From positions 1 to 62,118 of the forward strand of contig CAZXFD010000005.1 in NCBI GenBank assembly GCA_964640635.1: a stretch of DNA of 62,118 bases, given 5' to 3'. The stretch's first letter is position 1. Each line of letters opens with the position of its first letter. Of the stretch, positions 2,445 through 60,467 are shown piece by piece. Origin of the DNA: an uncultured Gammaproteobacteria bacterium (GTDB lineage: Bacteria > Patescibacteriota > Patescibacteriia > UBA1558 > S5-K13). The notes below the pieces were generated by a model. It worked only from the letters and a program-made list of their open reading frames with translations. It did no database searches and was not told where the DNA came from. The position numbers and the translations under genes were made by a program.

Positions 2445-2491
2445 AACAAATTTATTTTAAATTATTTTTTATAGTTAATATAAAAAGATTA

Positions 2492-5400
2492 ATGCTAAAA
2501 GTTTTTAATAAAAAAAATAATAGAATTCTATTTTTTGCAATTATAATAATTGTTGTTTTTTCTTTTGTAATAAATACCAAATTTATATATAAAATGTTGT
2601 TTGCGCAAAATGAAAGTGGAACAGAAAATCCAGCAGGATGGAGTTGGAATAATATTTTTGGTTGGCATAGCGGAGGATGTAATGGAAGTTATTATGGAGA
2701 ATATGAGGATTTTTGTGGAATAGGAGAACCTGTTTTGGATGTAAATTTTGATAGTCAGGATTTTAATTTTACGACCGAGAGAATCAAAGATAATTCAATA
2801 AATCATTTTTCAGGAATAACTTCACATATAGATATTGCAAACGTTAGAAATAGAACTGGTAGCTCCAATTTTAATCAGTCTATTTATTTTGATGGAGTAA
2901 ATTCATTTATAGATTTTGGAATAAAACCAGAATTTAATTTTTCTAGCAATGCTCAGCCATTTTCTATAAGCGCATGGTTTAAATTAGATGACGCAGACTC
3001 TAATTATACAATATTTTCAAATGGTATAGGAAACAATGGACAATATATGTGCTATGTAGATACATCTTTAAAAGTTATATGCTTTATTGCTGGTAATAGA
3101 TTTGAATCTGATGAGGAAGCTGTGTTGTATGGCAAGTGGTATAATTTGACAATTACATATTCAGGATCAGATGATTCAAAATTTAATATATATCTTGGTC
3201 GCTATGATAATAATAAAGTTGTAACTGATTATTTATTTAAGGATAGGATCATATCTTCTTATGAAAATCATACAAATAGTAATTTATTAATAGGTAAGGG
3301 GAAAATAACTACAATAGGAGTAGACAATTTTTTCAAAGGTGAAATAGATGATTTTAGAATATTCAATGTTGCACTTACAGCTGAGCAAGTGCTTCATAAT
3401 ATGTCTCACAATTCAAATTATTCTATAAAAATAGATGAGTTAAATGGTAAGATTTCCGGATGGGTTTGGAATCAAGGTTTGGGATGGATTTGTGTAGGAG
3501 AAACTTGTTCACCATCAACTCCTCCAATTGGTGGTTTTTCAGCAAATCTTTCAGATACAAAACTAAATTGGCAAGGAAATATGAGTCAGGGTATATATCC
3601 TAATATGATAACTGGTTGGGCAAAGGTGAATAATCCAAATCCAAATAGTTTAGATCCAAATAATGGATGGATTTCTTTTCAGGGGGATGTTTTGACACCT
3701 ACCCAAAGAACTTATTCACAGTGCGCTAGTTGTGTCACAAGAGATAGAGAAGACGGGCTTGTGGGCTATTGGAAAATGGATGATGGATCTGATAATACAG
3801 TGTCTGATTCATCTGGATTCGATAGAGATGGAGTAATAAAAGATTATGAATCTGAAAATTGGGTTTTGAGTGGATGTGTATTGAATAATTGTTTTGCCCC
3901 AAAAACCGAAAATAATTTTGTAGAAATTTCAGGCATAGAAAGAATAAGCACTAATAATTTTTCTTTTGAAGTTTGGATAAAAATGAATGAGGCTATGAAG
4001 GGCGGGGGATATATATTGGGATTTAGAGGAGCAGACAAATCAAATTTTGTAATGCTTTTTAATGAGGAAACAATAAATGTCAAATTGTTAAAAATAGATG
4101 TATGGGCAGATGGGCGAACTATTTTAGATAAAAAATGGCACCATATTGTTTTTACAGCAGATAGACGAGGAGATGCAAAGATATATATAGATGGCAAGTT
4201 ATCAGAAAAATCAGTTAAAAATATTAGTGATTTAGCAAATGAAGAAATCAATGAAGACGTCTTAAATATTGGTAGTTCCGAAAAAATAGAGAGACTGAGT
4301 GGTGGTTTTGAAAAAATGGAAAATTGGAATGGTGAAATAGATGTTGTAAGAATGTATAGTAGAGCCATTAGCAAAGAAGAAGTCGCTTATAATTATAGAT
4401 ATGTAGAAAAAAGAACATGTTCTGCATGTTTTGATATAAAAACAGATTTTACACAAAATATTTGTTATGAATGTAATACTTGTTATTTTTCAGATTCTTT
4501 GTATAAATGTGATTCTTGTTATCGCTGTCATAAATATGGACTTGTTTTTGATTCAAATACAGCAAGTGTAAAAGGATATGCTTGGGGAGGAAAAGATTAT
4601 GGGTGGCTCAAGTTTGGACCAAGCTTGGGTTCTGGAATATATAGATCCTATGTTTCTGCAAAATATGGAAATATATATAGTAAGGGTAATATTGGATCAG
4701 ACTATTCTGTCACTCCGCCAATAGGTTCTTACAATTCATCTTATCTTATACAAGCCAATGGCCATCTCATAAATTGGGCAAGTGAAAGCTCCGTTACAAA
4801 ATTAGTTCAAGGATCTGTTACAACAACAATTCCTAATTTCAACCCTACAAAGCCGTGGCTAAATTATTTTGGAAATCCAAGAGGATATACGGCTCCTGTT
4901 TATGAATATCCAAAAAATACCAACGATTACGGAAATGTTTTAGGAAGTATTGATTATGACAAATTGGTAGCAAAGGCAAGAGTAGATAATCATACTTTTC
5001 CAGGTATAGTAAATGGAACAAATAATGGAATTACTACTTGTCTGGGTGGTAAAGTATATTATAATAATGCAGCTACAACGCTCGGCAATGCTGGTGGGTC
5101 ATCATTAACATTTTTAAACGCTGCTTCATTGAGTCTTTGCTCAGATGCTTCTGGATTATTAATTATTAATGGAGATTTAACGATCACTGGCGATATTTTT
5201 TATCAAGCCAATCCCGTAAGTGGTAGTTATAAATCGCTTGCCTCAGCAGCTTGGATAATAAAAGGAGATTTATTTATAGATCCAAACGTTACAAATTTAG
5301 CAGGAACATTTATTGTACTTGGACGAGATGATATAGATTGTGGTAATAACCTAGATGATCCGACAGAGGGATGTGGTATTATATATACAGGGGATAGTGA

Positions 5401-5587
5401 CAAGCAATTAAAAATTTCTGGTCAAATTATGGCAAAGAATTTTCAGTTTCAAAGAAAATATAAAGATGCTATGAAAAGTCCAGCGGAGCTTGTGATATAT
5501 GATGGAAGAAATATTATAAATCCACCAATGGGACTAGGAGATCTTATGAAATCTCTTCCAAGATGGGATCAGATAGCACCTTATTAA
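2492..5587 (+). CDS. Large exported protein with two LamG/concanavalin-like domains, GWxW repeats and Cys-rich segment
   Basis: N-terminal TM; two FSxxxW...W.H/N...G.ID..R.Y/F LamG units; GWSWNNIFGW, GWVWNQGLGW, GYAWGGKDYGW repeats; directly upstream of pilM. Confidence 0.8.
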   Translation: MLKVFNKKNNRILFFAIIIIVVFSFVINTKFIYKMLFAQNESGTENPAGWSWNNIFGWHSGGCNGSYYGEYEDFCGIGEPVLDVNFDSQDFNFTTERIKDNSINHFSGITSHIDIANVRNRTGSSNFNQSIYFDGVNSFIDFGIKPEFNFSSNAQPFSISAWFKLDDADSNYTIFSNGIGNNGQYMCYVDTSLKVICFIAGNRFESDEEAVLYGKWYNLTITYSGSDDSKFNIYLGRYDNNKVVTDYLFKDRIISSYENHTNSNLLIGKGKITTIGVDNFFKGEIDDFRIFNVALTAEQVLHNMSHNSNYSIKIDELNGKISGWVWNQGLGWICVGETCSPSTPPIGGFSANLSDTKLNWQGNMSQGIYPNMITGWAKVNNPNPNSLDPNNGWISFQGDVLTPTQRTYSQCASCVTRDREDGLVGYWKMDDGSDNTVSDSSGFDRDGVIKDYESENWVLSGCVLNNCFAPKTENNFVEISGIERISTNNFSFEVWIKMNEAMKGGGYILGFRGADKSNFVMLFNEETINVKLLKIDVWADGRTILDKKWHHIVFTADRRGDAKIYIDGKLSEKSVKNISDLANEEINEDVLNIGSSEKIERLSGGFEKMENWNGEIDVVRMYSRAISKEEVAYNYRYVEKRTCSACFDIKTDFTQNICYECNTCYFSDSLYKCDSCYRCHKYGLVFDSNTASVKGYAWGGKDYGWLKFGPSLGSGIYRSYVSAKYGNIYSKGNIGSDYSVTPPIGSYNSSYLIQANGHLINWASESSVTKLVQGSVTTTIPNFNPTKPWLNYFGNPRGYTAPVYEYPKNTNDYGNVLGSIDYDKLVAKARVDNHTFPGIVNGTNNGITTCLGGKVYYNNAATTLGNAGGSSLTFLNAASLSLCSDASGLLIINGDLTITGDIFYQANPVSGSYKSLASAAWIIKGDLFIDPNVTNLAGTFIVLGRDDIDCGNNLDDPTEGCGIIYTGDSDKQLKISGQIMAKNFQFQRKYKDAMKSPAELVIYDGRNIINPPMGLGDLMKSLPRWDQIAPY

Positions 5588-5716: not shown

Positions 5717-6814
5717 ATGGGTTTATTTAAAGAAAAAAAACAAGATTTTTTAGGCATTGATATAGGAACATCCGGTATCAAAATTGTTCAACTTGCAAAT
5801 TATAATGGGAAAGCAAGAATTGTTACCTATGGAATGGTAGAAATGAATTCTGATCTTATAAGAAATAGAACACCAAGATTGTTAAAAGATGTTAGCGTCT
5901 CTATAAAAAAACTACTTGAAAAATCAAGAGTATCTACAAAAATTTGTTCAGCAGCGCTTCCTACGTTTTCTGTTTTTAGTTCTGTAATAAGTCTACCCAA
6001 GATGGATAAGGTTGATATGGATTCAGCTGTGAAATGGGAGGCAAAAAAGTTTATACCACTTCCAATGGAGGATATGATACTTAGTTGGGAGCTCATGGGA
6101 AGAAATAAAGCACAAACAAAAATAGCGCCAGAAAAATTTACAAATGAAAAAGGTTTTATTGAAACCCAATCAAGCTTTGATAAAGTATTTCTTACTGCTG
6201 CACCAAAGGGTGTTGTAAGTACATATATAGATCTTTTTAAGGGCTTAGGTATAGATTTATATAGTCTTGAAATAGAATCTTTTGCAACAGCAAGATCTCT
6301 TATTGATGACAGACTTACAACAACAATGATAGTAGATATAGGATCTATTACAACAGATGTTTGCGTTGTAGAAAATGGTTTTCCAATTTTAAATAGAAGT
6401 ATTGAAATAGGTGGAAATATTATGACAAAAGGAATAGCAGCTAGTATGAATGTAAGTGAAGAAAGAGCGGAGCAGTTTAAGAGAGATTTTGGACTAGTAT
6501 CGCTTGGAGAAAATGGAGGTGGCATTCCAAGAATTATAGAAGAAACTCTTAATCCAATGGTTAATGAAATTAAGTATGTTTTTGATCTGTATCGTCGCCA
6601 AGGGAACGGAACAGTAGAGAAAATAATATTATCAGGTGGCTCTGCTTATTTGCCAAATATTGTTAATTATCTTCAAAGTGTTTTAAATACACCAGTATAT
6701 ATTGGAGATGCATGGCATAAAGTAATGTATCCAAAAGAATTAAAACCAGTTCTTGATGAAATAGGTCCAAGATTTTCTGTTGCTATAGGACTTGCACTTA
6801 AAAATATAGTATAA
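5717..6814 (+). CDS. pilM: Type IV pilus assembly protein PilM
   Basis: LGIDIGTSGIK, VDIGSITT, ILSGGSA actin-fold motifs; C-terminal AIGLAL; first gene of pilMNO. Confidence 0.93.
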   Translation: MGLFKEKKQDFLGIDIGTSGIKIVQLANYNGKARIVTYGMVEMNSDLIRNRTPRLLKDVSVSIKKLLEKSRVSTKICSAALPTFSVFSSVISLPKMDKVDMDSAVKWEAKKFIPLPMEDMILSWELMGRNKAQTKIAPEKFTNEKGFIETQSSFDKVFLTAAPKGVVSTYIDLFKGLGIDLYSLEIESFATARSLIDDRLTTTMIVDIGSITTDVCVVENGFPILNRSIEIGGNIMTKGIAASMNVSEERAEQFKRDFGLVSLGENGGGIPRIIEETLNPMVNEIKYVFDLYRRQGNGTVEKIILSGGSAYLPNIVNYLQSVLNTPVYIGDAWHKVMYPKELKPVLDEIGPRFSVAIGLALKNIV

Positions 6815-6898
6815 TTAAATAGGTGAAAATAATTTTTATTGTGGCTGACAACTTATTTATCCCGTCTTGGCGGGACAAGCTGAAGGCTAAAAGCTAAA

Positions 6899-7867
6899 AT
6901 GAGTGATATAAATTTATTACCAGAAGATTTAAGAAAGAATGAATCAAAAATTCTGCAAGGCAGAGGATCTTTTTCTTATACTGATACTGAAGTTGAATAT
7001 ACGCCTGGAGAAAAATTACAAAAAAATGGAATTGGGGTTGTAGTTGATAAAGATAATAGTAAATCAAGAAATACTACAAATAATTTTAATAAAAATATAG
7101 CAACTCCTTACGTAGAAAAAAATATAAATATAGAGAAAGAAAGAGCTTATAATCCCCCAGTATTAGAGAAAAAAAATATTGTAAGTGAAAGTAATGAGAA
7201 TAAAAATAAAAAAGTAGGACAGGTAAGATCAAAGATGACTTTAGGAAAATTTTTAGCAAAGATAGATTTAGCTCTCAGATCCAAAAAGACTAAAAAAATG
7301 GAATCGGGTATTAATCTTATTCCAGAGAGCTTGAAAGCACCCTCTAATAAGGTTTTATTTTTTACTTTTTTTTATCCACTTTTGATTGTCGTGGGAATTG
7401 TTTTGGTGATATATTCTGGTTTAAAAATTTATGATATTCAAATACAAAACAACATAAAAGATGTTGATAATCAGGTTACAAGTGTTGTAGAGAGTGCGGG
7501 AGATTATAATAAATTAATTGTAGAGTTAGAGGATTGGCAAAATAAAACAAAAAAGATCAAAAATATTTTGACAAAGCATATTTATTGGACAGAGTTTTTT
7601 AGAAAATTAGAAGACAATACACTTGCAAATGTGAAATTTAATAATTTTTCAGGAAATATTCAGGGTAATCTTACATTTTTGGCAACAGCTCCAGATTATA
7701 CGACTGTCGTGCGTCAGTGGATGCACCTAAAAAGAGCAAAGGATTTTGTTAAAAATGTTATAATAAGTGGAGCAACGCTTTCTACAGGTCAAGCAGCTGG
7801 TAGTGGCGGAGTTTCTTTTTCAGTGACCCTAGATTTAGCTGAAGATATTTTTTATAAAACAGAATAA
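6899..7867 (+). CDS. pilN: PilN-like alignment protein with long N-terminal low-complexity linker
   Basis: N-terminal INLLP motif (repeated as INLIP), single TM, coiled coil, follows pilM. Confidence 0.7.
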   Translation: MSDINLLPEDLRKNESKILQGRGSFSYTDTEVEYTPGEKLQKNGIGVVVDKDNSKSRNTTNNFNKNIATPYVEKNINIEKERAYNPPVLEKKNIVSESNENKNKKVGQVRSKMTLGKFLAKIDLALRSKKTKKMESGINLIPESLKAPSNKVLFFTFFYPLLIVVGIVLVIYSGLKIYDIQIQNNIKDVDNQVTSVVESAGDYNKLIVELEDWQNKTKKIKNILTKHIYWTEFFRKLEDNTLANVKFNNFSGNIQGNLTFLATAPDYTTVVRQWMHLKRAKDFVKNVIISGATLSTGQAAGSGGVSFSVTLDLAEDIFYKTE

Positions 7868-7878
7868 ATAATTGAAAA

Positions 7879-8553
7879 ATGTTTGAAGATAAACAACAAA
7901 ATTCAAAAGAAGGTATCAAAGAAGAAAGAATAGATATCAAAGTTGGTAAAATCAAGAAAGATTCAAAACTCATTCTTTGGCTTATGAAATATAAAAAAGC
8001 CTTTATTCTTTTTGAGATGATTATATTTTTTGTGTCGTCCTACATTTTCTTTATTGGGCCAGAAGTTATGAAAGTGATTACATCGAAACAAATTTTATCT
8101 TCTAAAGAACAAGCACTTGTAGAAGCACAAAGTTTCAAGTTAAAAGTAGAAGAACTTCAAAGAGAGAGGGATGGAATACTTAGTCAAGACAATCAATATG
8201 CAAAAAAATTATATGAAGTTTTACCTCAAAAACAAAATTTACCAGAAATTATGGCCCAGGTAGATGCTCTTGTAAGAGATTATGGGCTCGTATTAGGAAG
8301 CGTGCAAATACAGGGCACTCAAGAAGATTCATCTGATGGTGAAATTCCAAACAATGAAGCACCAATAGGAGATATAATAAAAATAGTTCAAGTTACAGCC
8401 TTTGTTTTGGGTGGAGACGGAAGCTATGAGAAGGTAAAATTATTGTTAGATGGACTAGAAACTCATATAAGACTTTTTGATATAACCTCATTTAGTTTTG
8501 ACCCAGAAATGACAACTTATTCAATAGTTTTTAAGACCTATTATCTAGATTAA
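7879..8553 (+). CDS. pilO: PilO-like protein
   Basis: TM plus coiled coil, LPxxxNLPE motif, RLFDI strand; position after pilN. Confidence 0.7.
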   Translation: MFEDKQQNSKEGIKEERIDIKVGKIKKDSKLILWLMKYKKAFILFEMIIFFVSSYIFFIGPEVMKVITSKQILSSKEQALVEAQSFKLKVEELQRERDGILSQDNQYAKKLYEVLPQKQNLPEIMAQVDALVRDYGLVLGSVQIQGTQEDSSDGEIPNNEAPIGDIIKIVQVTAFVLGGDGSYEKVKLLLDGLETHIRLFDITSFSFDPEMTTYSIVFKTYYLD

Positions 8554-8557
8554 AAAA

Positions 8558-8923
8558 ATGGCAAAAAAAAATAAAAAAAATACATTGTTAATTATTGCTT
8601 TCATCATTTTAATGATCGCCGTAATTTATTTGAATAAAGAAAGACTTGGAATTAATACTTCAAAAGTAAGCGATATTATAATTCCAGACAGTGTTGTAGT
8701 TTCTAATAATGATCAAGTAAGCGAAATTAAAGCAAACAAAGATAAAATAGATAAAATTTTAAAAGAAACCAAGGACCTTCTACAAAAAGATCAGGGGTTT
8801 TTGAATAATTTACATTCTTATATAAGTCTTCCTATGACAGAGGATGAATATAAGTTTTTCATAGGTACTGTTCACAATGACTATCCATTTGGAAATCCAA
8901 TAAACGAAAAAAACAAAGAATGA
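8558..8923 (+). CDS. Small single-TM protein (PilP position)
   Basis: Lys-rich N-terminus plus TM; stop overlaps pilB start (ATGA). Confidence 0.6.
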   Translation: MAKKNKKNTLLIIAFIILMIAVIYLNKERLGINTSKVSDIIIPDSVVVSNNDQVSEIKANKDKIDKILKETKDLLQKDQGFLNNLHSYISLPMTEDEYKFFIGTVHNDYPFGNPINEKNKE

Positions 8924-10671
8924 TAAGCGACTACATAAATAAAATATTAGGTGCGATAAAAGAAAATAATTTATTAGACAACGATAAATTTTCTTTTCTG
9001 CAAGACAAACTAAAAAAAGAAAGTCCAAATATAGATGAACTTGTTAAAAAATATTCTCTTGTTGGTCAGGAAGAGTATGCAAAGATAAAGTCTCAGGCTA
9101 TAGGTATGCCCTATAAAGATCTGGTTGATGAGAATATTGGAAATGAAGCTCTTAGAATTTTGCCAATGAATTTAGCATCTAATTACAAGATGATAATTTT
9201 TAATAGGGTAAATGATATTTTGGAAGTAGGACTTGTTGACCCTGAAAATTTTAGTGCAATAGAAGCAGTAGAGTTTCTAGCGCATAAAAATAATTATAAT
9301 GTAAAATATTATCTTATATCAGAGAACTCTTTTAATAGTGCATTTAAAAAAGCACAAAACATAGAAGAAGAGGTTGGCGAGGCACTTGATTATGCAAAAG
9401 ACAAATTTGAAGATCTGGGAGATGTTGTAGAAGAAGAAAACTTAGAGGAAATAATTAAAACAGCCCCAGTTACAAAAATAGTTTCAGTTTTACTCAAGCA
9501 TGCGGTAGATGGAAGAGCATCAGATATTCACATAGAGCCCATTGGAAAAAATTCTGTAATAAGATTTAGAATAGATGGTGCACTTCATAAGTCCATTATT
9601 CTTCCTATATATATACATAATGCCCTTATAGCAAGAGTAAAAGTTATGTCGAACATGAAAATTGATGAAACAAGGATTCCCCAAGATGGAAGAATAAGAG
9701 TAAACGTCAAAAGTCAGGGAGAAGAAAAGAAGATAGATCTTAGAGTTTCCACTCTTCCACTATTGGATTATGAAAAAGTCGTAATGAGAATTTTAAGCAC
9801 GCCAGAAACAGTTCCAGATTTTGAAGAATTGGGTTTTATGGGAGAAGCGAGAAAGAAAATAGAGGTTGCAATAACAAAACCAAATGGGATGTTGCTCGTT
9901 ACAGGACCTACAGGAAGTGGTAAATCGTTTACTCTTTTTACTGCTTTAAATAGAATAAACAAAGAAGCTGTAAATATTTCAACATTAGAAGATCCAGTCG
10001 AGTATAGTGTTGAAGGTGTTAATCAATCTCAAATAAGACCGGAGGTAGATTATACATTTGCTACTGGACTTAGGTCACTACTTCGTCAAGATCCGGATAT
10101 TATCATGGTTGGAGAAATTAGAGATGCCGAAACAGCTGAGCTTGCTATTCACGCTGCTCTTACAGGACATCTTTTATTGTCCACACTTCATACAAATAAT
10201 GCACTAGGTGCAATTCCAAGACTTATGGATATGAAGGTAGAGCCATTTCTTTTGAGCTCCACTCTTAATCTTGTCCTTGCACAACGTTTAGTGCGAAAGA
10301 TTTGTGATAATTGCAAAGAAGAAATGAATTTACCAGAATCCCTGAATAAAGAAATAGAACAAATGATACAAGATTTACCAGAATCAGCTTTTTATGGTAA
10401 ATTTAAGAAAGGAGATAAGCCAAAATTTTATCGTGGCACAGGTTGTAATAGATGTGGCGGGACAGGATATAAAGGAAGATTAGCAATTGTTGAGGCATTT
10501 GAAATGGATAATAATTTGAAAGATGTCATCAATCAAAAGGCAGATATGATAAGGTTTCAGAACGAACTTAAAAAGCAAGGCTATATAAACATGGCCCAAG
10601 ATGGAGTTATAAAATCACTAGATGGAATTACAACAATACAAGAGGTTTTGAGCGTGACAAAGGATGAATAA
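8920..10671 (+). CDS. pilB: Type IV pilus extension ATPase PilB (GspE family)
   Basis: ASDIHIEP, Walker A GPTGSGKS, TLEDPVEY, Walker B DIIMVGE, GHLLLSTLH, CxxC...CxxC zinc motif. Confidence 0.95.
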   Translation: MISDYINKILGAIKENNLLDNDKFSFLQDKLKKESPNIDELVKKYSLVGQEEYAKIKSQAIGMPYKDLVDENIGNEALRILPMNLASNYKMIIFNRVNDILEVGLVDPENFSAIEAVEFLAHKNNYNVKYYLISENSFNSAFKKAQNIEEEVGEALDYAKDKFEDLGDVVEEENLEEIIKTAPVTKIVSVLLKHAVDGRASDIHIEPIGKNSVIRFRIDGALHKSIILPIYIHNALIARVKVMSNMKIDETRIPQDGRIRVNVKSQGEEKKIDLRVSTLPLLDYEKVVMRILSTPETVPDFEELGFMGEARKKIEVAITKPNGMLLVTGPTGSGKSFTLFTALNRINKEAVNISTLEDPVEYSVEGVNQSQIRPEVDYTFATGLRSLLRQDPDIIMVGEIRDAETAELAIHAALTGHLLLSTLHTNNALGAIPRLMDMKVEPFLLSSTLNLVLAQRLVRKICDNCKEEMNLPESLNKEIEQMIQDLPESAFYGKFKKGDKPKFYRGTGCNRCGGTGYKGRLAIVEAFEMDNNLKDVINQKADMIRFQNELKKQGYINMAQDGVIKSLDGITTIQEVLSVTKDE

Positions 10672-10706
10672 GTTGAGGTACGAAATAAGAATTAAAATTT
10701 AAATAT

Positions 10707-11087
10707 ATGGGTTACAAAAAAATTAAAATTTTGATAGCAGAGGATGATCCGTTTTTGTCACAGATGTATAGCGAAAAATTGGAAATGGAGGGCTATGACG
10801 TCACTCTTTCAACAGATGGTGAGTCAGCACTTGATAAAATGAAACTTGTAAAACCAGATATTGTATTACTTGATTTGCTAATGCCAAAAAAAGATGGTTT
10901 TGAAGTTCTTTCAGAAAAATCTACAGACATAGATATCAAGGATATACCAGTTATAGTTCTTACAAATCTTTCTCAGAATGAGCAGATAAAAAAATGTTAT
11001 GATTTGGGCGCAAAAGATTTTTTAATAAAAGCTTATTTTGTGCCAGCTGAAGTAATTCAGAAAATAAAGGATGTGCTAAATAAGTAA
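10707..11087 (+). CDS. Stand-alone response-regulator receiver (CheY-like)
   Basis: IAEDD, VLLDLLMP phospho-Asp, conserved T and K. Confidence 0.9.
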   Translation: MGYKKIKILIAEDDPFLSQMYSEKLEMEGYDVTLSTDGESALDKMKLVKPDIVLLDLLMPKKDGFEVLSEKSTDIDIKDIPVIVLTNLSQNEQIKKCYDLGAKDFLIKAYFVPAEVIQKIKDVLNK

Positions 11088-11162
11088 GAAGTATAAAGGA
11101 CGAGGTCCAAAGTCTAAATAAAATTAAAAATACGATTTTATCTTATATTTTGTATTTATTAT

Positions 11163-11236
11163 TTCAAACCTTATCCTTAATAACTTAACACTCCTTGCAC
11201 TTCATACTTCAAACCTTATCCTTAATAACTTAACAC
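11163..11236 (+). repeat. Perfect 29-bp direct repeat, 2 copies
   Basis: TTCAAACCTTATCCTTAATAACTTAACAC at 11163-11191 and 11208-11236. Confidence 0.9.
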
Positions 11237-11237
11237 C

Positions 11238-12290
11238 GTGCCAGCAATAGAACAATTACAATTAAATGAACTCATAAATCAAGCCATAAAAGAGCAAGTA
11301 AGCTCTATTTATTTCAATATAAGTAATTATCCTACTGTAGAAATTTTTGGTTCGCTCAAGTCTTTAAAAGACAAGCCAATTCTTACAAAAGAATTTTTGG
11401 AAACAATAGCTTCTAATTTTTTGTCAGATAATCAAAGAAGAATGTTGGATGAAAAAAAAGAGCTAAAAGTTGCTTATGATTGGTCTGCAAAAGTAAGATT
11501 GATTATGAATTTTTTTTATCAAAAACAGTCTCTTTCTATTTCTATAAAAATAGTCCCAACCCAACTAATGGATATTAATGATTTTGAGATTTCATCTATT
11601 ATGCAACAAGCAGTAGGTATGAATTCTGGCCTTGTAATAATTTGTGGGCCAGCATCATCAGGACGTAGTATGACTGTTTTATCGATGATAGATTATATAA
11701 ACAAAAATCAAGAAAAAAGAATAGCCACAATAGAAGAGCCAATTGAATATCAGTTTGTAAATAATTTGTCTATAATAAATCAAAGAGAAGTGGGTCTTGA
11801 TGTTGAATCTTTTGAAGAAGGACTCAAAAATGTCATTGATGAGAGTGTCGATGTAGTATATGTTTCTAAAATTCAGTCAAAAGAAGAAATAAATCTTGTA
11901 TTACAGGTTGCCTCTTCTGGTAAGCTAGTTTTTGTGATTATAGATAGTGAGTCAATAATAGAGCTTTTGGATAAAATTTTTGGAAGTTTTGATTTGTCAG
12001 AAAAAGAATGGGCAAAAAGCCTTGTAACAGAGTCTTTAAAAATTATTATAAATCAAAGAATGTTTCAAAAGGTGGGGGGCGGTCAAATAGTAACAGCAGA
12101 AGTTCTTACAATGACTCAATCAAGTAAGCCAATAGTAAAGTCATTTAAATTTGATCAGCTTAAATCAATAATGCAAACATCTAGAAGAGAAGGAATGCAA
12201 GATCTAGATGGAGTTATTAGAGATCTTTTGCAACGCGGGGTAATTAGATCAGAGGAAGCAAAAAAATATTTATCATCATTAAGTATATAA
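11238..12290 (+). CDS. pilT: PilT-family protein with degenerate catalytic motifs
   Basis: PilT-like layout (EPIEY, INQREVG, SIMQTSRREGMQ) but Walker A GPASSGRS, Walker B VYVSK, His box lost. Confidence 0.8.
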   Translation: MPAIEQLQLNELINQAIKEQVSSIYFNISNYPTVEIFGSLKSLKDKPILTKEFLETIASNFLSDNQRRMLDEKKELKVAYDWSAKVRLIMNFFYQKQSLSISIKIVPTQLMDINDFEISSIMQQAVGMNSGLVIICGPASSGRSMTVLSMIDYINKNQEKRIATIEEPIEYQFVNNLSIINQREVGLDVESFEEGLKNVIDESVDVVYVSKIQSKEEINLVLQVASSGKLVFVIIDSESIIELLDKIFGSFDLSEKEWAKSLVTESLKIIINQRMFQKVGGGQIVTAEVLTMTQSSKPIVKSFKFDQLKSIMQTSRREGMQDLDGVIRDLLQRGVIRSEEAKKYLSSLSI

Positions 12291-12291
12291 A

Positions 12292-13503
12292 ATGTCAGTT
12301 TTTTCATACAAAGCATTAAATGAAAATGGTCAGAGTATATCTGGTTTTGTTGACGCACCATCTGTTGATATTGCAGAAGGGGCACTCCTTGAAAGAGGAT
12401 TCAAAATTATAGATATTCAAGAAGAATCAAGTAATGAATTTTCTTTGGTAAAGCTTTTGCCATTTTTAAATAAAATAGGAAAGAAAGACTTAGTTATTTT
12501 TTCAAGACAGTTGTCTGTGATGATTTCAGCTACTGTGCCTATTATTCAAGCGCTTCGCGCAATATCCAAGCAAACTAAGAAGCTTCCACTACAGAAAGTA
12601 ATAGATGAAATTGCTGATGATGTAGATGGTGGTATGAAGTTGTCTGACGCATTTGATAAACACGATGCATTTGATAATGTTTTTGTAAATATGATAAGTG
12701 CTGGAGAAACATCGGGTAAGTTGGACGAAGTCTTAGAATACTTGGCGGATGAGATAGAAAAAAGCTATGACCTAGAGTCAAAAATAAAAGGTGCAATGAT
12801 TTACCCAGCTTTTATAGTGGGCGGACTTATTGTAGTCGGTGTTGCTATGATGGTGTTTGTTTTGCCAAATATGGTAGGAATGCTTGAGGAGTCAGGACAG
12901 ACACTCCCACTCCCTACAAGAATTTTGATATTTATAAGTGGCGCTTTAAGAAATTATTATTATTTGGTTCTTTTGTTTTTGTTTGGAGTCGTAGGAGGTT
13001 CTTATGTATTTGTCAAAAAGACAGTTGTTGGGGCAAATATTTTCAACACTGTAAAGCTCAAGTTCCCAGTATTTGGAAAGTTGTGGCAATATATTTATGT
13101 CGTTAGATTTTCAGGAACTCTATCAAGTCTTCTTGCAGCAGGTGTTTCTCTTACGGGTGCTCTTAGAATTTCGGGAGAAGTTGTCGGAAATGTAAAATAC
13201 AAAGAAGTTATTACAGGAACCATTGCAAAGGTAGAGGATGGTTATTCTATGGCGGATACACTTGCAAAATCAGAAATTTTTCCATCAATGGTAATTCAGA
13301 TGATAAGAGTGGGAGAAAAAACTGGTAAAATGAATTTGGTTTTAGATAAATTATCTAGTTTCTATGCAAGAGAGGTCAAAAATATTGTTTCAAATCTTTC
13401 TTCACTTCTTGAGCCAATAATTATGGTGGTCATTGGTATTGCTGTTGCTGGAATGGTAGCTGCTGTGCTTATGCCTATGTATAATATGGCGAATGCGTTT
13501 TAG
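12292..13503 (+). CDS. pilC: Type IV pilus platform protein PilC (GspF family)
   Basis: FSRQLSVM, AGETSGKLD, YPAF, GEKTGKM, LLEPII motifs. Confidence 0.95.
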   Translation: MSVFSYKALNENGQSISGFVDAPSVDIAEGALLERGFKIIDIQEESSNEFSLVKLLPFLNKIGKKDLVIFSRQLSVMISATVPIIQALRAISKQTKKLPLQKVIDEIADDVDGGMKLSDAFDKHDAFDNVFVNMISAGETSGKLDEVLEYLADEIEKSYDLESKIKGAMIYPAFIVGGLIVVGVAMMVFVLPNMVGMLEESGQTLPLPTRILIFISGALRNYYYLVLLFLFGVVGGSYVFVKKTVVGANIFNTVKLKFPVFGKLWQYIYVVRFSGTLSSLLAAGVSLTGALRISGEVVGNVKYKEVITGTIAKVEDGYSMADTLAKSEIFPSMVIQMIRVGEKTGKMNLVLDKLSSFYAREVKNIVSNLSSLLEPIIMVVIGIAVAGMVAAVLMPMYNMANAF

Positions 13504-13555
13504 TAAAAAGGCGAAGAGCGAAAGATAAAAGTTAAAAAGGCATAATTTTAAATTT

Positions 13556-14074
13556 ATGAACAAAAACAAAAAAGGTTTTACGATTATTGAACTTCTGGTT
13601 GTAATTGCAATTATTGGATTGCTATCGACCCTTGCTCTTAACTCTCTTGATAATGCAAGAAAGAACGCAAGAGATACAAAGAGAGTATCAGATTTAAAAA
13701 CTATTCAAAAAGCTCTTGAAATGTATGCAAATGCGCATGATGGTCATTTGCCTACAGGACCAGTAATCAACTTTAGTAGCCAGTTGGCAGAATATTTACC
13801 AGAAGGTTTACCACACAATCCTTTTTATGGAGTTATTAGATATTATTGGATATGCACAATTGGCACCAAATATATTTTATATGCAGATATGGAAAAAAAT
13901 ATTTATACACAAGCCTCTAAACCGGTTAATGATGATTTTAATTCTATTTCGGGATGTTATTATTTTCGTTATACCAGTCCAACTGCAAAGTCTAATGGGC
14001 TTTATACTTTTTCTCGCGCAATAAACTGTAGTCTTGATAATACGTATTGTTTTTCAGGAACTTTTACACCCTAG
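13556..14074 (+). CDS. Type IV pilin 1
   Basis: KKG|FTIIELLVVIAIIG class III signal peptide, ARDxKRxSD helix. Confidence 0.93.
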   Translation: MNKNKKGFTIIELLVVIAIIGLLSTLALNSLDNARKNARDTKRVSDLKTIQKALEMYANAHDGHLPTGPVINFSSQLAEYLPEGLPHNPFYGVIRYYWICTIGTKYILYADMEKNIYTQASKPVNDDFNSISGCYYFRYTSPTAKSNGLYTFSRAINCSLDNTYCFSGTFTP

Positions 14075-14204
14075 GAATTATTGTATTTGTCGTGTTTTGA
14101 AATTTGTGTTATATAATTTTTTCATCTCTTTATTATCGAAGATGGGGTGGGAGGTATAAAGGTGAAAGTTTCTTGTATTTCTCCTTCCGCCTAATTTTAA
14201 TTTA

Positions 14205-14213
14205 TGCTATAAT
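14205..14213 (+). promoter_or_regulatory. Extended -10 promoter upstream of pilin 2
   Basis: TG-C-TATAAT. Confidence 0.5.
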
Positions 14214-14349
14214 ATTTATATAAATAATGTTGATAAAAAAAGACTTTTGGGTTTGTCAAAGGTCAAATTAAAATAATTAAAATAAATAAGGTTATGAGTT
14301 CTACTGGGATTTACCTAGACTAGAGACATAACTAAGAAAGCTAAATAAA

Positions 14350-14805
14350 ATGAAGAAAAAAGGTTTTACTCTGATTGAGCTCTTGGTTGTAATCGCAATC
14401 ATTGGGCTACTATCAACACTTGCTGTAGTTTCTCTTGGAACTGCAAGAGGAAAAGCAAGAGATGCAAAAAGAATTTCTGATGTAAAAGCAATTCAAACCG
14501 CTATTGAAATGGCAAAAAATGATAATAATGGCAACATTGTTTTGACCAATATAGCAGCTTATATACAGGGTGGAATGCCTACTAGTAGTTTGGGATTTTA
14601 TATTTGTACTACAACAGATAAATATTTAATTGGGGCTAAGTTAGAAGATACTGGTGGAACTGGATCAATAACAACAAAGCCAACGTGGTTAGGTACTAAT
14701 GCTATGTGTGTTAAAACAGAAGCATTAACTGCAACACCTGTAGCATTACCAGCAACACATGAATGTACACTAGCAAGTAAAAGTTTTTGTACTGGCGATA
14801 ATTAA
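14350..14805 (+). CDS. Type IV pilin 2 (candidate major pilin)
   Basis: KKKG|FTLIELLVVIAIIG; has its own upstream promoter-like region. Confidence 0.93.
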   Translation: MKKKGFTLIELLVVIAIIGLLSTLAVVSLGTARGKARDAKRISDVKAIQTAIEMAKNDNNGNIVLTNIAAYIQGGMPTSSLGFYICTTTDKYLIGAKLEDTGGTGSITTKPTWLGTNAMCVKTEALTATPVALPATHECTLASKSFCTGDN

Positions 14806-14880
14806 AATTTTTTTATGTAATTTAAATGCTAAAACTAAAAATTTTAAATTTATAGTTTAGCATAAAAAGGATTTAATAAT

Positions 14881-15357
14881 ATGAAGAAAAAAGGTTTTAC
14901 ACTGATCGAGCTCTTGGTTGTAATTGCGATCATTGGGCTACTATCAACACTTGCTGTAGTTTCCCTTGGATCTGCAAGACAAAAGGCGGCTGATGCAAAG
15001 AGAATTTCTGATTTAAAAGCAATTCAAACAGCAATGGAGATGGTCAAAAACAATGCTGATCCAGAACTAGCAACAAATAGCACTACAACGCTTGGAGGAT
15101 ATATTCAGGGTGGTTTTCCAAAGCCAGTAAGCGATAGTTTCCTTTATTATATTTGTGCAAATGGATCAAGTTCTTTAATGGCCGCAACACTGCAAGCTAC
15201 CGGAGCTAATACAGCATCACCTATTTCAGGATCACCAACTACATATACAGCTGCTACACATTGTGTATCTGTTAATAGTAATTGGGTTAGAACTCCTCTA
15301 ACAGATTTTACGAATTTAAATTGTGGTACAAATGCATATTGTATTGGTGTTAAATAA
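14881..15357 (+). CDS. Type IV pilin 3
   Basis: KKKG|FTLIELLVVIAIIG; first 30 aa identical to pilin 2. Confidence 0.93.
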   Translation: MKKKGFTLIELLVVIAIIGLLSTLAVVSLGSARQKAADAKRISDLKAIQTAMEMVKNNADPELATNSTTTLGGYIQGGFPKPVSDSFLYYICANGSSSLMAATLQATGANTASPISGSPTTYTAATHCVSVNSNWVRTPLTDFTNLNCGTNAYCIGVK

Positions 15358-15374
15358 GAAGTAGTAGTTTTTTC

Positions 15375-15406
15375 AAACCCCGTTCATTTATAATGGCGGG
15401 GTTTTT
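15375..15406 (+). terminator. Intrinsic terminator after pilin 3
   Basis: AAACCCCGTT...GGCGGGGTTT stem followed by T-run. Confidence 0.75.
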
Positions 15407-15428
15407 AGTTTGTTGAAATTAGAAAAAC

Positions 15429-15466
15429 CCAACCCTGGGTTAGTCTATCGACTAACCCAGGGTTGG
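15429..15466. repeat. Perfect 17-bp inverted repeat
   Basis: CCAACCCTGGGTTAGTC-TATC-GACTAACCCAGGGTTGG. Confidence 0.9.
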
Positions 15467-15525
15467 TGTGATTAAATACTTTATGTAAATATGATATAAT
15501 AATTACATAAATATTTTTATATCGC

Positions 15526-16056
15526 ATGAATAATTGTAAAAATAAAAATTTCAAGAAAAAAGCCTTTACTCTTATTGAGCTTTTGGTTGTAATTGCTATT
15601 ATTGCACTTTTATCAACGCTCGTTTTAAATGCTTTTAGTAGTACAAGGTCAAAGGCGAGAGATGCGAAAAGAAGATCTGATTTAGTAGCCATTCAAAAAG
15701 CTATGGAGATGTATAAAGATAGTAATTCTAAACAAGAGGCAACAAATGATATTAATTTATTGAGTATATATATTCAAGGCGGATTTCCAAAACCAACAAG
15801 CGACAAATTTTATTATGTTTGTAAGGGTATTAACTGGGTTGGGAATAGAGATCTGACAAAATATTTAGTTGGTGTTGAATTAGAAAATGATCAAATTTCT
15901 CCAGATCAACTTTCTTCACCGCCATCGGGGAATACCCTTAATTCTTATAGCGCTACGGGATGTATATCTATTAATAATAATTTAGCTACAACTACTGTGA
16001 CTCAAGCAAGTGTTCCTTGTTTTGAATCTAATGTATATTGCGTTGGTAATAAATAG
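15526..16056 (+). CDS. Type IV pilin 4
   Basis: KKKA|FTLIELLVVIAIIA; YIQGGFPKP shared with pilin 3. Confidence 0.92.
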   Translation: MNNCKNKNFKKKAFTLIELLVVIAIIALLSTLVLNAFSSTRSKARDAKRRSDLVAIQKAMEMYKDSNSKQEATNDINLLSIYIQGGFPKPTSDKFYYVCKGINWVGNRDLTKYLVGVELENDQISPDQLSSPPSGNTLNSYSATGCISINNNLATTTVTQASVPCFESNVYCVGNK

Positions 16057-33507: not shown

Positions 33508-33702
33508 ATGGGAATAAAAGATGTAATAAAAAATCTTCCAGTAATGGAAACAAAGGGCGATTATTTTGGTGTTGCATCCGATAAATTTGTCAATGGATTT
33601 TTGGAATTTATTTTTAAGAGCTTGCCAAGGATACTTTTTGGTCTTGCTATTTTTTATACACTTTATAATATATTGAGTCCGATGGTGGTTGTAGTTAGAT
33701 AG
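33508..33702 (+). CDS. Small hypothetical membrane protein
   Basis: 64 aa, one C-terminal TM; isolated intergenic ORF. Confidence 0.5.
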   Translation: MGIKDVIKNLPVMETKGDYFGVASDKFVNGFLEFIFKSLPRILFGLAIFYTLYNILSPMVVVVR

Positions 33703-33735
33703 AGTTTAGTATTTGGGGTTTAGTATTTAGTATTT

Positions 33736-33766
33736 TTCGCCAAAGGCGGATCAGCCTCAGGCTGAA
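33736..33766. repeat. Double-hairpin REP-like element (copy 1)
   Basis: CGCC-AAA-GGCGG-AT-CAGCC-TCA-GGCTG. Confidence 0.75.
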
Positions 33767-33945
33767 GAGTTTAGTTAAGAAGAGGACCTGGGTTCTTTTT
33801 TTATTTGTGGTAAGAGTCGAAAGGTTAAGGATAAATAAGCAAAGTTTGACAAATAAATTTATAAATGATAAGAAAAATACATTACTAAATGCTGGACAAA
33901 AATGTCATAGTAAAGGTAAAAAAAGAATGTACTGGGAGGTACAAA

Positions 33946-34668
33946 ATGAAAAATCTAAATACTGGTAGTTTGCTTCCTGTGCCAAGGGGCGAATTTGAAG
34001 CAAGCATAAACGTTTTAGAAAATGCAGGAATGAAACCCTGGATGTTGAACTTGTTACGTTCATCAAGGGGTGAATTAATTGCAAAGAGAGTAATATCTGT
34101 TTTTATTGAGATTAAGCTAAAGGAATGGCAAGAATTCTATAAAAAATACTTTGATCTCGAGATCGACGTGTTTAATGTTATTTTACCAGATCCTATAAAG
34201 AATTTTGATAAACTCATTATCGTAGTGCCTAGTCTAACTATTGGAAAGGTGTTTGATGTGATGTCCAAGCATTTTAAATGTTCGTGGACGACTGATAAAT
34301 GGGACGGACAATGGCATTTTAAAAAAGAAGACATTCTTAATTATGTTAACTCAGAAGCAAAAAATTATGCATTTTGGGTTAGAGATAGTTCTGAGTCAGA
34401 TCAAAAATATCTTGGGAAGTTAACGGACGAGAATCGGCAGGTGAATTGTCCTATAGAAAATATGCTAGAAGCTTTGCTCCATATTTTCAAAGTCTGGGAT
34501 GAGTCTGGGGAGTTCATTAATTCAAGAACTAATTTACTTACCTATTGCGATGCTTTCCAAGGAGTTTTAATAAGCATTAACTATCGAGGGGCAGGCATAG
34601 TATATGTAAATTTATTTTATGGTTTTGCACGACCTGAACACTGTGGCCCAAGAGAAAAAATAGTTTAA
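33946..34668 (+). CDS. Orphan protein, possible divergent C-type-lectin-fold family member
   Basis: TTGACA at 33846, GGGAGG at 33934-33939; WQEFYKKYF, YAFWVRD..ESD, C-terminal GPRE.IV; terminator at about 34682-34718. Confidence 0.65.
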   Translation: MKNLNTGSLLPVPRGEFEASINVLENAGMKPWMLNLLRSSRGELIAKRVISVFIEIKLKEWQEFYKKYFDLEIDVFNVILPDPIKNFDKLIIVVPSLTIGKVFDVMSKHFKCSWTTDKWDGQWHFKKEDILNYVNSEAKNYAFWVRDSSESDQKYLGKLTDENRQVNCPIENMLEALLHIFKVWDESGEFINSRTNLLTYCDAFQGVLISINYRGAGIVYVNLFYGFARPEHCGPREKIV

Positions 34669-34811
34669 GTAAGAATTGTAGAGCCCTATTTGTAAAAATT
34701 TGCAGACAGGGCTTTTTTGTTTGTATTCGAATCAATCTTGGGTTGGGTATTGATTAATAAAAAAACAGCCACATAAAGGTGTAGCTGTAAGTATTAGTTT
34801 TTACTAAGTCA

Positions 34812-35354
34812 TTAGACTTCGGTGAGTTCGATCTCATCGTCGTTTTGTAGAATGCAGTCTAAGCTTAGGAGTTTTTCTGGATTATCGAACTCATGGACAT
34901 TAAAGTTCTCTGGCAAGGAGAGGGTATCTTTGGTTTGTTCTATAAGTTGAGCAATGGTACTTCCCTCAAGAACTTTTATCGGGTTTCCTTTTCCATCACA
35001 ATATATCCAAACTTCAATTATTCCTGGTTTGGAAAATGTTATCTCCTCTCCGCTTGCGACTGTGGCATCATTGGTGAGAATTTCCCCATAACTTTTTGCT
35101 ATGAGATCAGGTGGTACATTAGATTTTTCTCGGATTTTTGATACGGTGGTTTCTTCTTTAACTTTGATAACCATTTCGGGCTCGATAAATGTGATCTCAT
35201 CATGCTGCTCAACTGAAGCAATATCTCGGAGAACTTTATCCCCAATTTTTGCAATGAATCCCGAGGGGATATTAAATTGTTCCCTGAGTTTGAATAGGGG
35301 CATCTTCCCAAATGAGTTAATGTCCGCATTGTGGATATTAATAATTATTTTCAT
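34812..35354 (-). CDS. Protein with three tandem ubiquitin-like (beta-grasp) repeats
   Basis: Repeats K(L/I)RE..N(I/V)P...IAK..G..L....V...(D/E)EITF..P; TTGACA-N17-TAAGAT promoter, AAGGAGG RBS. Confidence 0.7.
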   Translation of the reverse strand: MKIIINIHNADINSFGKMPLFKLREQFNIPSGFIAKIGDKVLRDIASVEQHDEITFIEPEMVIKVKEETTVSKIREKSNVPPDLIAKSYGEILTNDATVASGEEITFSKPGIIEVWIYCDGKGNPIKVLEGSTIAQLIEQTKDTLSLPENFNVHEFDNPEKLLSLDCILQNDDEIELTEV

Positions 35355-35514
35355 GATTTCCTCCTTGTATTTTTTGATATCTTATTACTTATGTTATATT
35401 TTGTCAACGGGTCATACGACCCGTTTTAATGAAAAATGCCGAACCCCGGATTGGTTAAGTTATAAATAAAAAACAAGGCTTTCGCCTCGTCTTTAGATGT
35501 ATATATAAAAGAAG

Positions 35515-35697
35515 TTATTTTATTTTTTTTGGCTTTGCCATTGTTTTAATACAATTTGCACAAACATTTACATATTTGTCACCAACTTTTTTGCTCTGCA
35601 TATTTATTTTTACCACCCTTTTTGTTTTTACTTGAGAATGGCTTTTTAAAAATCCAGATGAAGTACCTCTTTGACATATTGAACAAATTTTTGGCAT
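35515..35697 (-). CDS. rpmB: 50S ribosomal protein L28 (zinc-binding type)
   Basis: MPKICSIC..G...G...SHS..KTKR....N.Q...CANCIK. Confidence 0.88.
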   Translation of the reverse strand: MPKICSICQRGTSSGFLKSHSQVKTKRVVKINMQSKKVGDKYVNVCANCIKTMAKPKKIK

Positions 35698-36681: not shown

Positions 36682-37110
36682 ATGCCAACAATAAATCAAT
36701 TAACAAAAAATCCAAGAAAAAATCCAAGAAAAAAGTTGAAAATGATTGGACTTAAGGTTACTTCAAATTCTTTAAGAAGAACAAAGAAAACAAGCAATGT
36801 AGGATCTTCTTTCAAAAGAGGGGTTTGTGTTAAGGTTACTACAGTAACTCCAAAAAAACCTAATTCAGCTCTTAGAAAAATAGCTAGAGTAAGACTTTCA
36901 AATGGATCAGAAGTAACAGCATATATTCCAGGAATGGGTCATAATTTGCAAGAGCATTCAATCGTTTTGATAAGAGGTGGAAGAGTAAAAGATTTATCAG
37001 GTGTTTCTTACCATATAGTAAGAGGTGTCTATGATACTCAGGGTGTCCAAAATAGAGCTCAAGGAAGATCTATTTATGGAGCAAAAAGACCAAAAGAAAA
37101 GAAGGTATAG
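36682..37110 (+). CDS. rpsL: 30S ribosomal protein S12
   Basis: [31 protein letters not shown]. Confidence 0.98.
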
Positions 37111-60433: not shown

Positions 60434-60467
60434 TTCCGCCATAGGCGGATCAGCCTTTGGCTGAGAA
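60434..60467. repeat. Double-hairpin REP-like element (copy 3)
   Basis: Reverse complement is 32/34 identical to 37116-37149. Confidence 0.85.

Follow-up and report, generated by a model that had tools for sequence, protein, structure and literature searches.

Introduction

To our knowledge, the tandem ubiquitin-like (Ubl) proteins of bacteria have so far been known as substrates of operons of the E1/E2 type (Bil and Bub), some of which are anti-phage. Proteins that consist of three beta-grasp domains are encoded in these operons beside genes for an E1, an E2 and a peptidase and can form Ca2+-dependent filaments, and the number of domains within the Bil/Bub Ubl family ranges from one to three (PMC11601603); “PolyUbl” proteins with E1 and JAB genes as neighbors were predicted as early as 2006 (PMC1779556). 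Here we analyze a gene found on contig CAZXFD010000005.1 (GenBank assembly GCA_964640635.1) of an uncultured bacterium, a stretch of 62,118 nucleotides that is denoted the window throughout. The gene encodes a protein of three tandem repeats, each predicted to be a beta-grasp domain (hereinafter the Ubl gene and the Ubl protein). A short note made earlier from the nucleotide sequence had described a stand-alone triple beta-grasp protein at this position and had correctly pointed to the multi-Ubl proteins of the Bil and Bub operons (PMC11601603; PMC1779556). The results described below place the Ubl protein in a small, fast-changing family that appears to be confined, with one outlier, to a lineage of Candidate Phyla Radiation (CPR) bacteria and point, with modest confidence, to a non-conjugated protein involved in non-covalent binding.

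Tandem repeats and family members

The three tandem repeats proposed in the earlier note (R1, R2 and R3, with lengths of 60, 51 and 69 amino acids (aa), respectively; Table 1) are borne out by statistical comparison. The local alignment of R1 with R2 yields a score of 76, as compared to 20.4 ± 3.9 for shuffled sequences (n = 2000; z = 14), with none of the 2000 shuffles reaching 76. Taken as a single pair, R3 and R2 align weakly (z = 2.7), but the profiles of the short and long repeat types that these sequences represent match each other with a probability of 97.6% (hhalign, E = 4.6e-12), which implies that all three repeats are homologous. Indeed, all 22 repeats from 7 proteins of the family can be aligned as a single module. 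The short-type module (51-61 aa) is characterized by the motif N-I/V-P-x-D/E-L-I/V-A-K ... F-x-K-P-E/G, and the long-type module (63-80 aa) by the motif L-E-G-S/T-T-I. The string of residues previously reported as shared by R1 and R2 is nearly right, with the G out of register and two of the dot counts off by one. In the Ubl protein, the repeat junctions are IEPE/M and SKPG/I, and the linkers between domains are predicted to be 2-4 residues long. The motif NVPPDLIAK of R2 resembles GIPPDQQRL of ubiquitin; the z-score for R2 against human ubiquitin is 4.8, matched by 1 of 2000 shuffles, so that the parallel drawn in the earlier note is real but modest.

Two family members, P0002 and P0003, have the same length as the Ubl protein (180 aa) and are 76-81% identical to it. 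Three others consist of two modules: P0004 and P0006 (126-127 aa) combine a short and a long module in an R2-R3-like arrangement, and P0005 (123 aa) combines an R1-like module with a long one. A distant member, P0007 (466 aa; positions 4105-5505 of locus L007), contains seven tandem beta-grasp repeats in which the short and long types alternate. Thus, the number of modules in the family is 2, 3 or 7, and the basic unit appears to be a pair that consists of a short-type and a long-type domain.

The family is small. Five relatives of the Ubl protein were detected among 5.8 billion clustered proteins, and an exhaustive scan of 1.84 billion representative proteins recovered four true relatives; a search with the profile of the repeat alignment retrieved P0004-P0006 only, and P0007 is a singleton in protein databases; a search with this protein recovered itself alone. 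A scan of genome contigs produced a single relative contig, that of “Candidatus Komeilibacteria bacterium S5_K13”; no relatives were found in the metagenome contigs of JGI (two scans), in viral contigs or in phage records searched with tblastn. The DNA runs that contain the Ubl locus are wastewater metagenomes. Together with the S5_K13 contig, these runs identify the carrier of the window as a Komeilibacteria-like CPR bacterium. Judging by these searches, the family is probably specific to a genus-level clade of Komeilibacteria-like CPR bacteria, with one outlier. P0007 is the sole member found outside the rpmB context described below: its gene resides beside genes for NfeD and Band_7 (flotillin-like) proteins in a locus with a G+C content of 36-40%.

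A group of HYR-like repeat proteins (P0008-P0014) was rejected as relatives. The match is confined to the hairpin SKPGIIEVWIYCDGKGN that spans the R2/R3 junction and is not conserved in P0002 and P0003 (YRGEKRD in these proteins), and repetition inflates the scores, which is compatible with a chance or convergent beta-hairpin.

Predicted fold and sequence affinities

The structure of the Ubl protein was modeled using AlphaFold2 from a shallow alignment of 9 rows, with a mean predicted local distance difference test (pLDDT) value of 85.3 (88-93 in R2) and a predicted template modeling (pTM) score of 0.67. In the DSSP assignment of this model, all three modules show the order of elements E-E-H-E-E-E (E, strand; H, helix); R3 is a complete beta-grasp, and the first hairpins of R1 and R2 are shortened. 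A search of the PDB with Foldseek yielded 51 matches at E <= 1e-3 with probabilities of 0.99-1.00, and all 50 that are listed are ubiquitin-fold chains, including linear tetra-, tri- and di-ubiquitin, ISG15, FAT10, the tandem Ubl of OASL, two ubiquitin fusions, the talin FERM head, the Citrobacter multi-ubiquitin 9d5a (E = 3e-4) and the bacterial Ubl 8tyx from a complex of a Ubl with a deubiquitinase (DUB). The best match is 7yui_A (E = 1.8e-7); the TM scores for ISG15 are 0.39-0.45, and single-domain matches reach a TMt of 0.71 with a root-mean-square deviation of 2.2 Å. The matches in a library of viral structures are mostly to ubiquitin and Ubl proteins, among them giant-virus ubiquitins and ubiquitin insertions of pestiviruses, and even a poor model built from the single sequence (pLDDT 56) already matched tri-ubiquitin. 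Accordingly, all three repeats are predicted to adopt the beta-grasp fold in its ubiquitin/ThiS-like form; the model and structure comparison that the earlier note had called for thus recover the beta-grasp folds that it had postulated.

At the sequence level, P0007 matches the Pfam family ThiS over four stretches (E = 4.9e-15; 56.3 bits at a cut-off of 22.5) as well as ThiS-like and Urm1, and has a weak, sub-threshold match to TGS (E = 0.0024); among isolated repeats, 5 of 18 match ThiS. A profile of 18 repeats compared to PDB sequences retrieved mostly ubiquitin, designed ubiquitin variants, DSK2, the UBL of BMI-1, TtuB and SAMP2 at marginal E-values of 0.006-0.6, and the latter two proteins are also among the Foldseek matches. 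The search of PDB sequences with the Ubl protein itself gave chance matches only (LysR, E = 0.26), and no match was found in Pfam (E <= 10; no TGS match in particular), PADLOC, PHROGs or NCBIfam.

Three other variants of the beta-grasp were considered and discarded. A 2Fe-2S ferredoxin-type domain is ruled out because the Ubl protein contains just 2 cysteines, neither of which is conserved. Immunoglobulin-binding repeats of the Protein G/L type and secreted beta-grasp domains of the streptokinase type do not fit either, given that the Ubl protein has no detectable signal peptide or anchor and neither type is among the Foldseek matches listed.

A protein that is not conjugatable as encoded

The earlier note had stated that the protein lacks a C-terminal Gly-Gly, and this holds throughout the family. 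The Ubl protein ends in DDEIELTEV, with G131 as the last glycine, and the C-termini of the family, namely TEV, IEA, IEV, IEI, TKA and KIQ, show that a conserved C-terminal glycine is present in no member. Hence the protein cannot be conjugated as encoded, which agrees with the non-conjugated status assigned to it earlier. R2 does end in FSKPG, but the junction glycine is not conserved: the two-domain proteins P0004, P0005 and P0006 have KPE in this position.

The statement that no E1, E2 or JAB genes are located nearby stands as well. None of the Pfam-scanned open reading frames (ORFs) of the window encodes ThiF/MoeB, UQ_con, Prok-E2, JAB or DUF6527 (most of the run of ribosomal proteins at 36.7-52 kb, from ~43 kb on, was identified by ORF order and the precomputed Pfam labels of syntenic loci), and ThiF/MoeB, E2, JAB and DUF6527 are equally missing in all neighborhoods of the homologs. 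The neighbors do not include ThiG, MoaE or TtuA. Pfam Multi_ubiq (PF14452) has no match at E <= 10 in P0001-P0007 or among single repeats, YukD has none in the Ubl protein or its homologs, and no genes of the type VII secretion system are present in the window. The combination of the missing C-terminal glycine with the lack of accompanying E1, E2 or deubiquitinase genes implies that, as encoded, the Ubl protein serves neither in sulfur transfer nor in covalent modification.

The gene and its expression signals

The earlier note placed the element at 34812-35407; the ORF itself occupies the part of this interval up to 35354, and the remaining part is the promoter. The promoter, Shine-Dalgarno (SD) sequence and terminator that had been claimed for the gene were all located, and the former two are conserved over five related loci (Table 1). 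When the spacers between rpmB and the Ubl gene from these five loci are aligned, no changes are seen in the promoter hexamers, the SD or the start codon and the rest varies, although the Ubl proteins of those relatives share just 41-80% identity. Homologs exist, the ratio of nonsynonymous to synonymous substitution rates (dN/dS) is 0.22-0.44, and neither the promoter nor the SD varies among the relatives; therefore, the Ubl ORF is a real gene that carries conserved expression signals. Two overlapping ORFs on the plus strand (34893-35141 and 35101-35469) are considered spurious because the homology and the purifying selection reside in the frame of the minus strand. The Ubl protein is acidic, with an isoelectric point (pI) of 4.6 (32 D+E vs. 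18 K+R), which argues against RNA binding.

An additional hairpin abuts the -35 box of the promoter. Compensatory changes keep it in L001 and L008, and it is missing from L005 and L009, that is, from two of the four relatives. The TTTT that follows it on the plus strand makes it look like a terminator for antisense transcripts, and it may therefore stop antisense transcription that would enter rpmB. No Rfam families were detected in or around the Ubl locus.

Rapid and mosaic evolution

The Ubl protein changes 3-6 times faster than the products of the neighboring genes at the amino-acid level: against 41-80% identity to its relatives, ribosomal protein L28, the M50 protease, LytR and a 64-aa protein show 83-93%. 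The dN values are 0.25-0.50 for the Ubl gene and 0.01-0.13 for the L28 and 64-aa genes. The dN/dS of the Ubl gene (0.22-0.44) stays below 1 for all pairs; the values are 0.05-0.16 for the flanking genes relative to L001 and 0.05-0.46 for L28. None of the copies seen has a frameshift or a truncation.

The divergence is uneven along the gene. In the comparison with L001, dS equals 0 in codons 31-90, and the nucleotide identity is 97-99% at 35041-35220, whereas R3 shows a dS of 0.6-1.0, with a genomic background of 0.55-0.89; the dS of rpmB is low as well (0.03-0.16). This pattern suggests either recent recombination or an unrecognized constraint at the nucleotide level. Furthermore, the relationships between domains cross the protein boundaries: R1 shares 68% identity with the first domain of P0005 but only 33% with R2 of its own protein, and R3 shares 61% with the second domain of P0004. 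R1 is orthologous to the former domain and R3 to the latter, so that the two- and three-module architectures go back to the loss of modules or to recombining alleles and not to recent tandem duplication. Overall, the Ubl gene evolves under purifying selection, yet quickly, and is mosaic between strains. The speed of this evolution, its mosaic character and the shuffling of modules suggest that the partner varies and is not a core housekeeping target.

Proposed function and alternatives

We consider it slightly more probable than a coin toss that the Ubl protein is a cytoplasmic, non-conjugated tandem-Ubl protein that functions through non-covalent, multivalent binding or as a scaffold. Under this scenario, an acidic cytoplasmic protein of three head-to-tail beta-grasp (ubiquitin/ThiS-MoaD-like) domains would be expressed from a separate promoter, strong and conserved, that is located downstream of rpmB, and each beta-grasp face would bind, non-covalently, a partner or another copy of the same protein, in a mode that can be likened to that of UBL domains and of free ISG15. 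Together, the three modules would make the protein a multivalent adaptor or scaffold. The partner would be one that changes quickly and might belong to a phage, the host or another strain, or be the protein itself.

Several points weigh against this proposal. Both the non-covalent mode and the kind of partner are inferred, and none of the RNA runs searched contains the Ubl gene. The support for the fold is a prediction from the shallow alignment, the Ubl protein has no Pfam family, and direct hhalign comparison of the repeat profile with single sequences of ubiquitin and Escherichia coli ThiS is weak (probabilities of 13% and 1%, respectively). The search for conjugation genes covered the window and the loci of the homologs, so that distant E1 and E2 genes are possible, and the fast evolution could also mean weak constraint instead of a variable partner.

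An unlikely alternative is that the Ubl protein is a self-assembling structural protein that forms dimers or metal-dependent filaments, as does the Ubl3 of Bil/Bub, and serves as a scaffold or sensor rather than an adaptor. The architecture of three beta-grasp domains is the same as in Ubl3, for which Ca2+-mediated filaments have been shown (PMC11601603), and the filament-forming Citrobacter protein 9d5a is among the Foldseek matches; the strongly acidic composition is in line with this possibility, and the consensus-type promoter and SD point to a high level of expression. However, there is no sequence match to Multi_ubiq, and the two-domain relatives would be without the geometry of the Ubl3 dimer.

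Less likely still is a weakly constrained, lineage-specific orphan without an important function, in which the beta-grasp is simply a stable, easily duplicated fold. The narrow distribution (4 true relatives among the 1.84 billion representatives and none in the JGI metagenome, viral and phage data) and the variable presence of a neighboring gene for a 259-aa protein are compatible with such an orphan, as is a dN/dS above that of most flanking genes, though the L28 range overlaps. Conversely, selection against amino acid change is apparent in every pair compared, no disrupted copy was seen, the promoter and SD are perfectly conserved, and the gene is kept in 5 of 5 related loci.

A comparably low probability is assigned to a more specific version of the earlier idea of a decoy, possibly host-directed: a non-conjugatable poly-Ubl of an episymbiotic CPR bacterium engaged in molecular conflict as a decoy or multivalent binder, or else a self-assembling filament. 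The targets in the conflict version could be ubiquitin-like, Bil/Bub-type or Ubl-recognizing machinery of the host or of phages, and under either version, recombination would shuffle alleles and module numbers to keep pace with the partner. The one indication of a role in conflict or interaction, an indirect one, comes from the way the Ubl gene evolves compared with its neighbors: fast, as a mosaic and with shuffling of modules. The Ubl protein has no signal peptide, no link to a secretion system was found, and searches of PADLOC, PHROGs and phage records yielded no match to defense or phage families.

The two remaining readings carry most of the counter-evidence. It is very doubtful that the Ubl protein is a translation- or RNA-associated factor in which a TGS-like beta-grasp binds RNA or the ribosome: the constant position just downstream of rpmB in five Komeilibacteria-like loci, among ribosomal genes, and the weak TGS match of P0007 speak for it, but the pI is 4.1-5.1 in 4 of the 5 members examined, the Ubl protein itself has no TGS match, and its gene has a separate promoter, with rpmB ending in its own terminator. 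Moreover, a rate 3-6 times that of L28 combined with a variable number of domains is unlike core translation factors, P0007 adjoins NfeD and Band_7 rather than ribosomal genes, and the rpmB synteny is only genus-deep.

MoaD tails are of the FFPPVTGG type, and the ends of 4 of the 7 repeats of P0007 (PG or LG) resemble such tails. In the least credible reading, the Ubl protein would be processed into a Ubl fit for conjugation or for carrying sulfur, through a cut at the KPG junction that exposes a C-terminal glycine for an E1-like enzyme encoded elsewhere in the genome. This reading can appeal to the repeat ends of P0007, to FSKPG at the end of R2, to the ThiS match of P0007 and to the processing of the Bil and Bub Ubls (PMC11601603); against it stand the non-conserved junction glycine (KPE in P0004-P0006), the C-terminal glycine missing from every family member and the failure to find E1, E2, JAB or DUF6527 in 62 kb or in the neighborhoods of the homologs.

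Genomic context

The window has a G+C content of ~31% and contains a type IV pilus cluster, relA/spoT, topA, dprA, LytR, der, pth and the S12-S7-EF-G-EF-Tu-S10 region. The neighbors of the Ubl gene encode L28 (rpmB), an M50 peptidase, the 259-aa protein, the 64-aa membrane protein and LytR. In 5 of 5 Komeilibacteria-like loci, the Ubl gene is directly downstream of rpmB on the same strand. The 259-aa gene is present in L001, L002, L005 and L010 and absent from L008 and L009, with the relatives of its product sharing 61-79% identity and no match in Pfam, PHROGs, NCBIfam or PDB; the 64-aa gene is convergent and always downstream of the Ubl locus, and its product has no family match in Pfam, PHROGs or NCBIfam. 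Because the Ubl gene is fast-evolving and mosaic and the 259-aa gene is variably present, the segment from rpmB to the 64-aa gene is a small variable island within a conserved backbone.

Table 1. Coordinates of the Ubl gene, its domains and signals, and other features of the window
Feature	Position	Strand	Remarks
Ubl coding sequence	34812-35354	-	180 aa + stop (stop codon 34812-34814)
Repeat 1 (aa 1-60)	35175-35354	-	short-type beta-grasp module, insertion in first hairpin
Repeat 2 (aa 61-111)	35022-35174	-	shortest beta-grasp module, N-terminal hairpin truncated
Repeat 3 (aa 112-180)	34815-35021	-	long-type complete beta-grasp: b1-b2 hairpin, helix, b3-b5
Sigma-70-type promoter, TTGACA-17-TAAGAT	35379-35407	-	both hexamers invariant in five related loci
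Shine-Dalgarno, AAGGAGG	35360-35366	-	5 nt before ATG; GGAGG invariant in relatives
Intrinsic-terminator-like hairpin + T-run	34765-34788	-	24 nt past the Ubl stop codon
Hairpin ACGGGTC-GTAT-GACCCGT	35407-35424	-	abuts -35 box of the Ubl promoter
rpmB (ribosomal protein L28)	35515-35697	-	upstream of the Ubl gene; own terminator at 35469-35494
259-aa protein gene	33889-34668	+	convergent to the Ubl gene, between the Ubl and 64-aa genes
64-aa membrane-protein gene	33508-33702	+	C-terminal hydrophobic helix; 84-89% identical in relatives
Twin-hairpin motif, copy 1	33738-33765	+	
Twin-hairpin motif, copy 2	60437-60464	+	3 mismatches
RCC1-repeat and laminin-G/pentaxin-like proteins	627-5587		upstream of the pilus cluster
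Type IV pilus cluster	5717-16056	+	
Ribosomal protein S12	36682-37110	+	142 aa

A twin-hairpin motif, CGCCAAAGGCGG-AT-CAGCCTCAGGCTGA, occurs in the window in two copies against a chance expectation of 0 copies and does not belong to an Rfam family. The region 33719-33778, which includes the first copy, is covered at a depth of ~60, as opposed to ~5 elsewhere, by numerous unrelated metagenome contigs of wastewater and groundwater origin, so that the motif is a short intergenic repeat dispersed in related genomes. Among the ribosomal proteins, S12 has an apparent extra basic N-terminal stretch ahead of the conserved core, and the same length of 142 aa is observed in L001, L002 and L010. The pilus cluster encodes PilM, PilB-like and PilT-like ATPases, a response regulator, PilC and four prepilin-like proteins with N-methylation motifs; together with the large RCC1-repeat and laminin-G/pentaxin-like proteins, it is consistent with the lifestyle of a surface-attaching CPR bacterium.

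Comparison with known systems

Both the fold and the architecture of three beta-grasp domains are known already. What is new is a tandem-Ubl family that stands alone, is not conjugatable and is confined to a CPR lineage, and it is unusual to see a conserved strong promoter combined with the loss of all conjugation features and with fast modular evolution. The Ubl gene would represent a poly-Ubl that has given up conjugation entirely, in a CPR bacterium with a reduced genome. Should a partner be found, this would amount to a purely non-covalent use of the poly-Ubl architecture in bacteria and provide a new handle on the poorly understood biology of the CPR; without a partner, the family is a well-characterized orphan with a familiar fold.

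Like the Ubl protein, the Ubl3 of the Bil/Bub systems (BilA/BubA; Multi_ubiq, PF14452) is a small bacterial protein with three tandem beta-grasp domains. In contrast to Ubl3, the Ubl protein lacks matches to Multi_ubiq and in PADLOC, E1, E2, JAB and DUF6527 partners and a C-terminal glycine; its modules are smaller (51-69 aa vs. about 70-75 aa), and its carrier belongs to the CPR, not to the proteobacteria, actinobacteria or cyanobacteria. By sequence, the nearest family, through P0007, is ThiS/MoaD (PF02597; ThiS-like, PF14453; Urm1, PF09138), which shares with the Ubl family the motif ...DGDEIxF..P... ahead of the last strand. The Ubl protein differs from ThiS/MoaD in its sub-threshold score, in the tandem rather than single arrangement of the modules, and in the lack of Gly-Gly and of ThiF/MoeB, ThiG, MoaE and TtuA neighbors.

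By structure, the best matches are polyubiquitin, ISG15 and FAT10, in which, as in the Ubl protein, Ubl domains are arranged head to tail with minimal linkers; in addition, ubiquitin and R2 share the (I/V)PPD loop. The two sides differ in the bacterial origin of the Ubl protein and its family’s Pfam affinity to ThiS, as well as by a sequence identity of 12-19%, and because Gly-Gly is absent from both the repeat junctions and the C-terminus of the Ubl protein, neither DUB processing nor conjugation is expected.

Finally, the UBL domains of adaptor proteins, YukD/EsaB of type VII secretion and TGS employ the beta-grasp as a non-covalent binding surface and have no Gly-Gly tail. The Ubl protein can be distinguished from YukD/EsaB, TGS and ubiquitin in that it has no Pfam match, no type VII genes nearby and an acidic composition, whereas the mechanism proposed for it here would be the same as in these non-conjugated modules, namely a non-covalent binding surface that operates without Gly-Gly.

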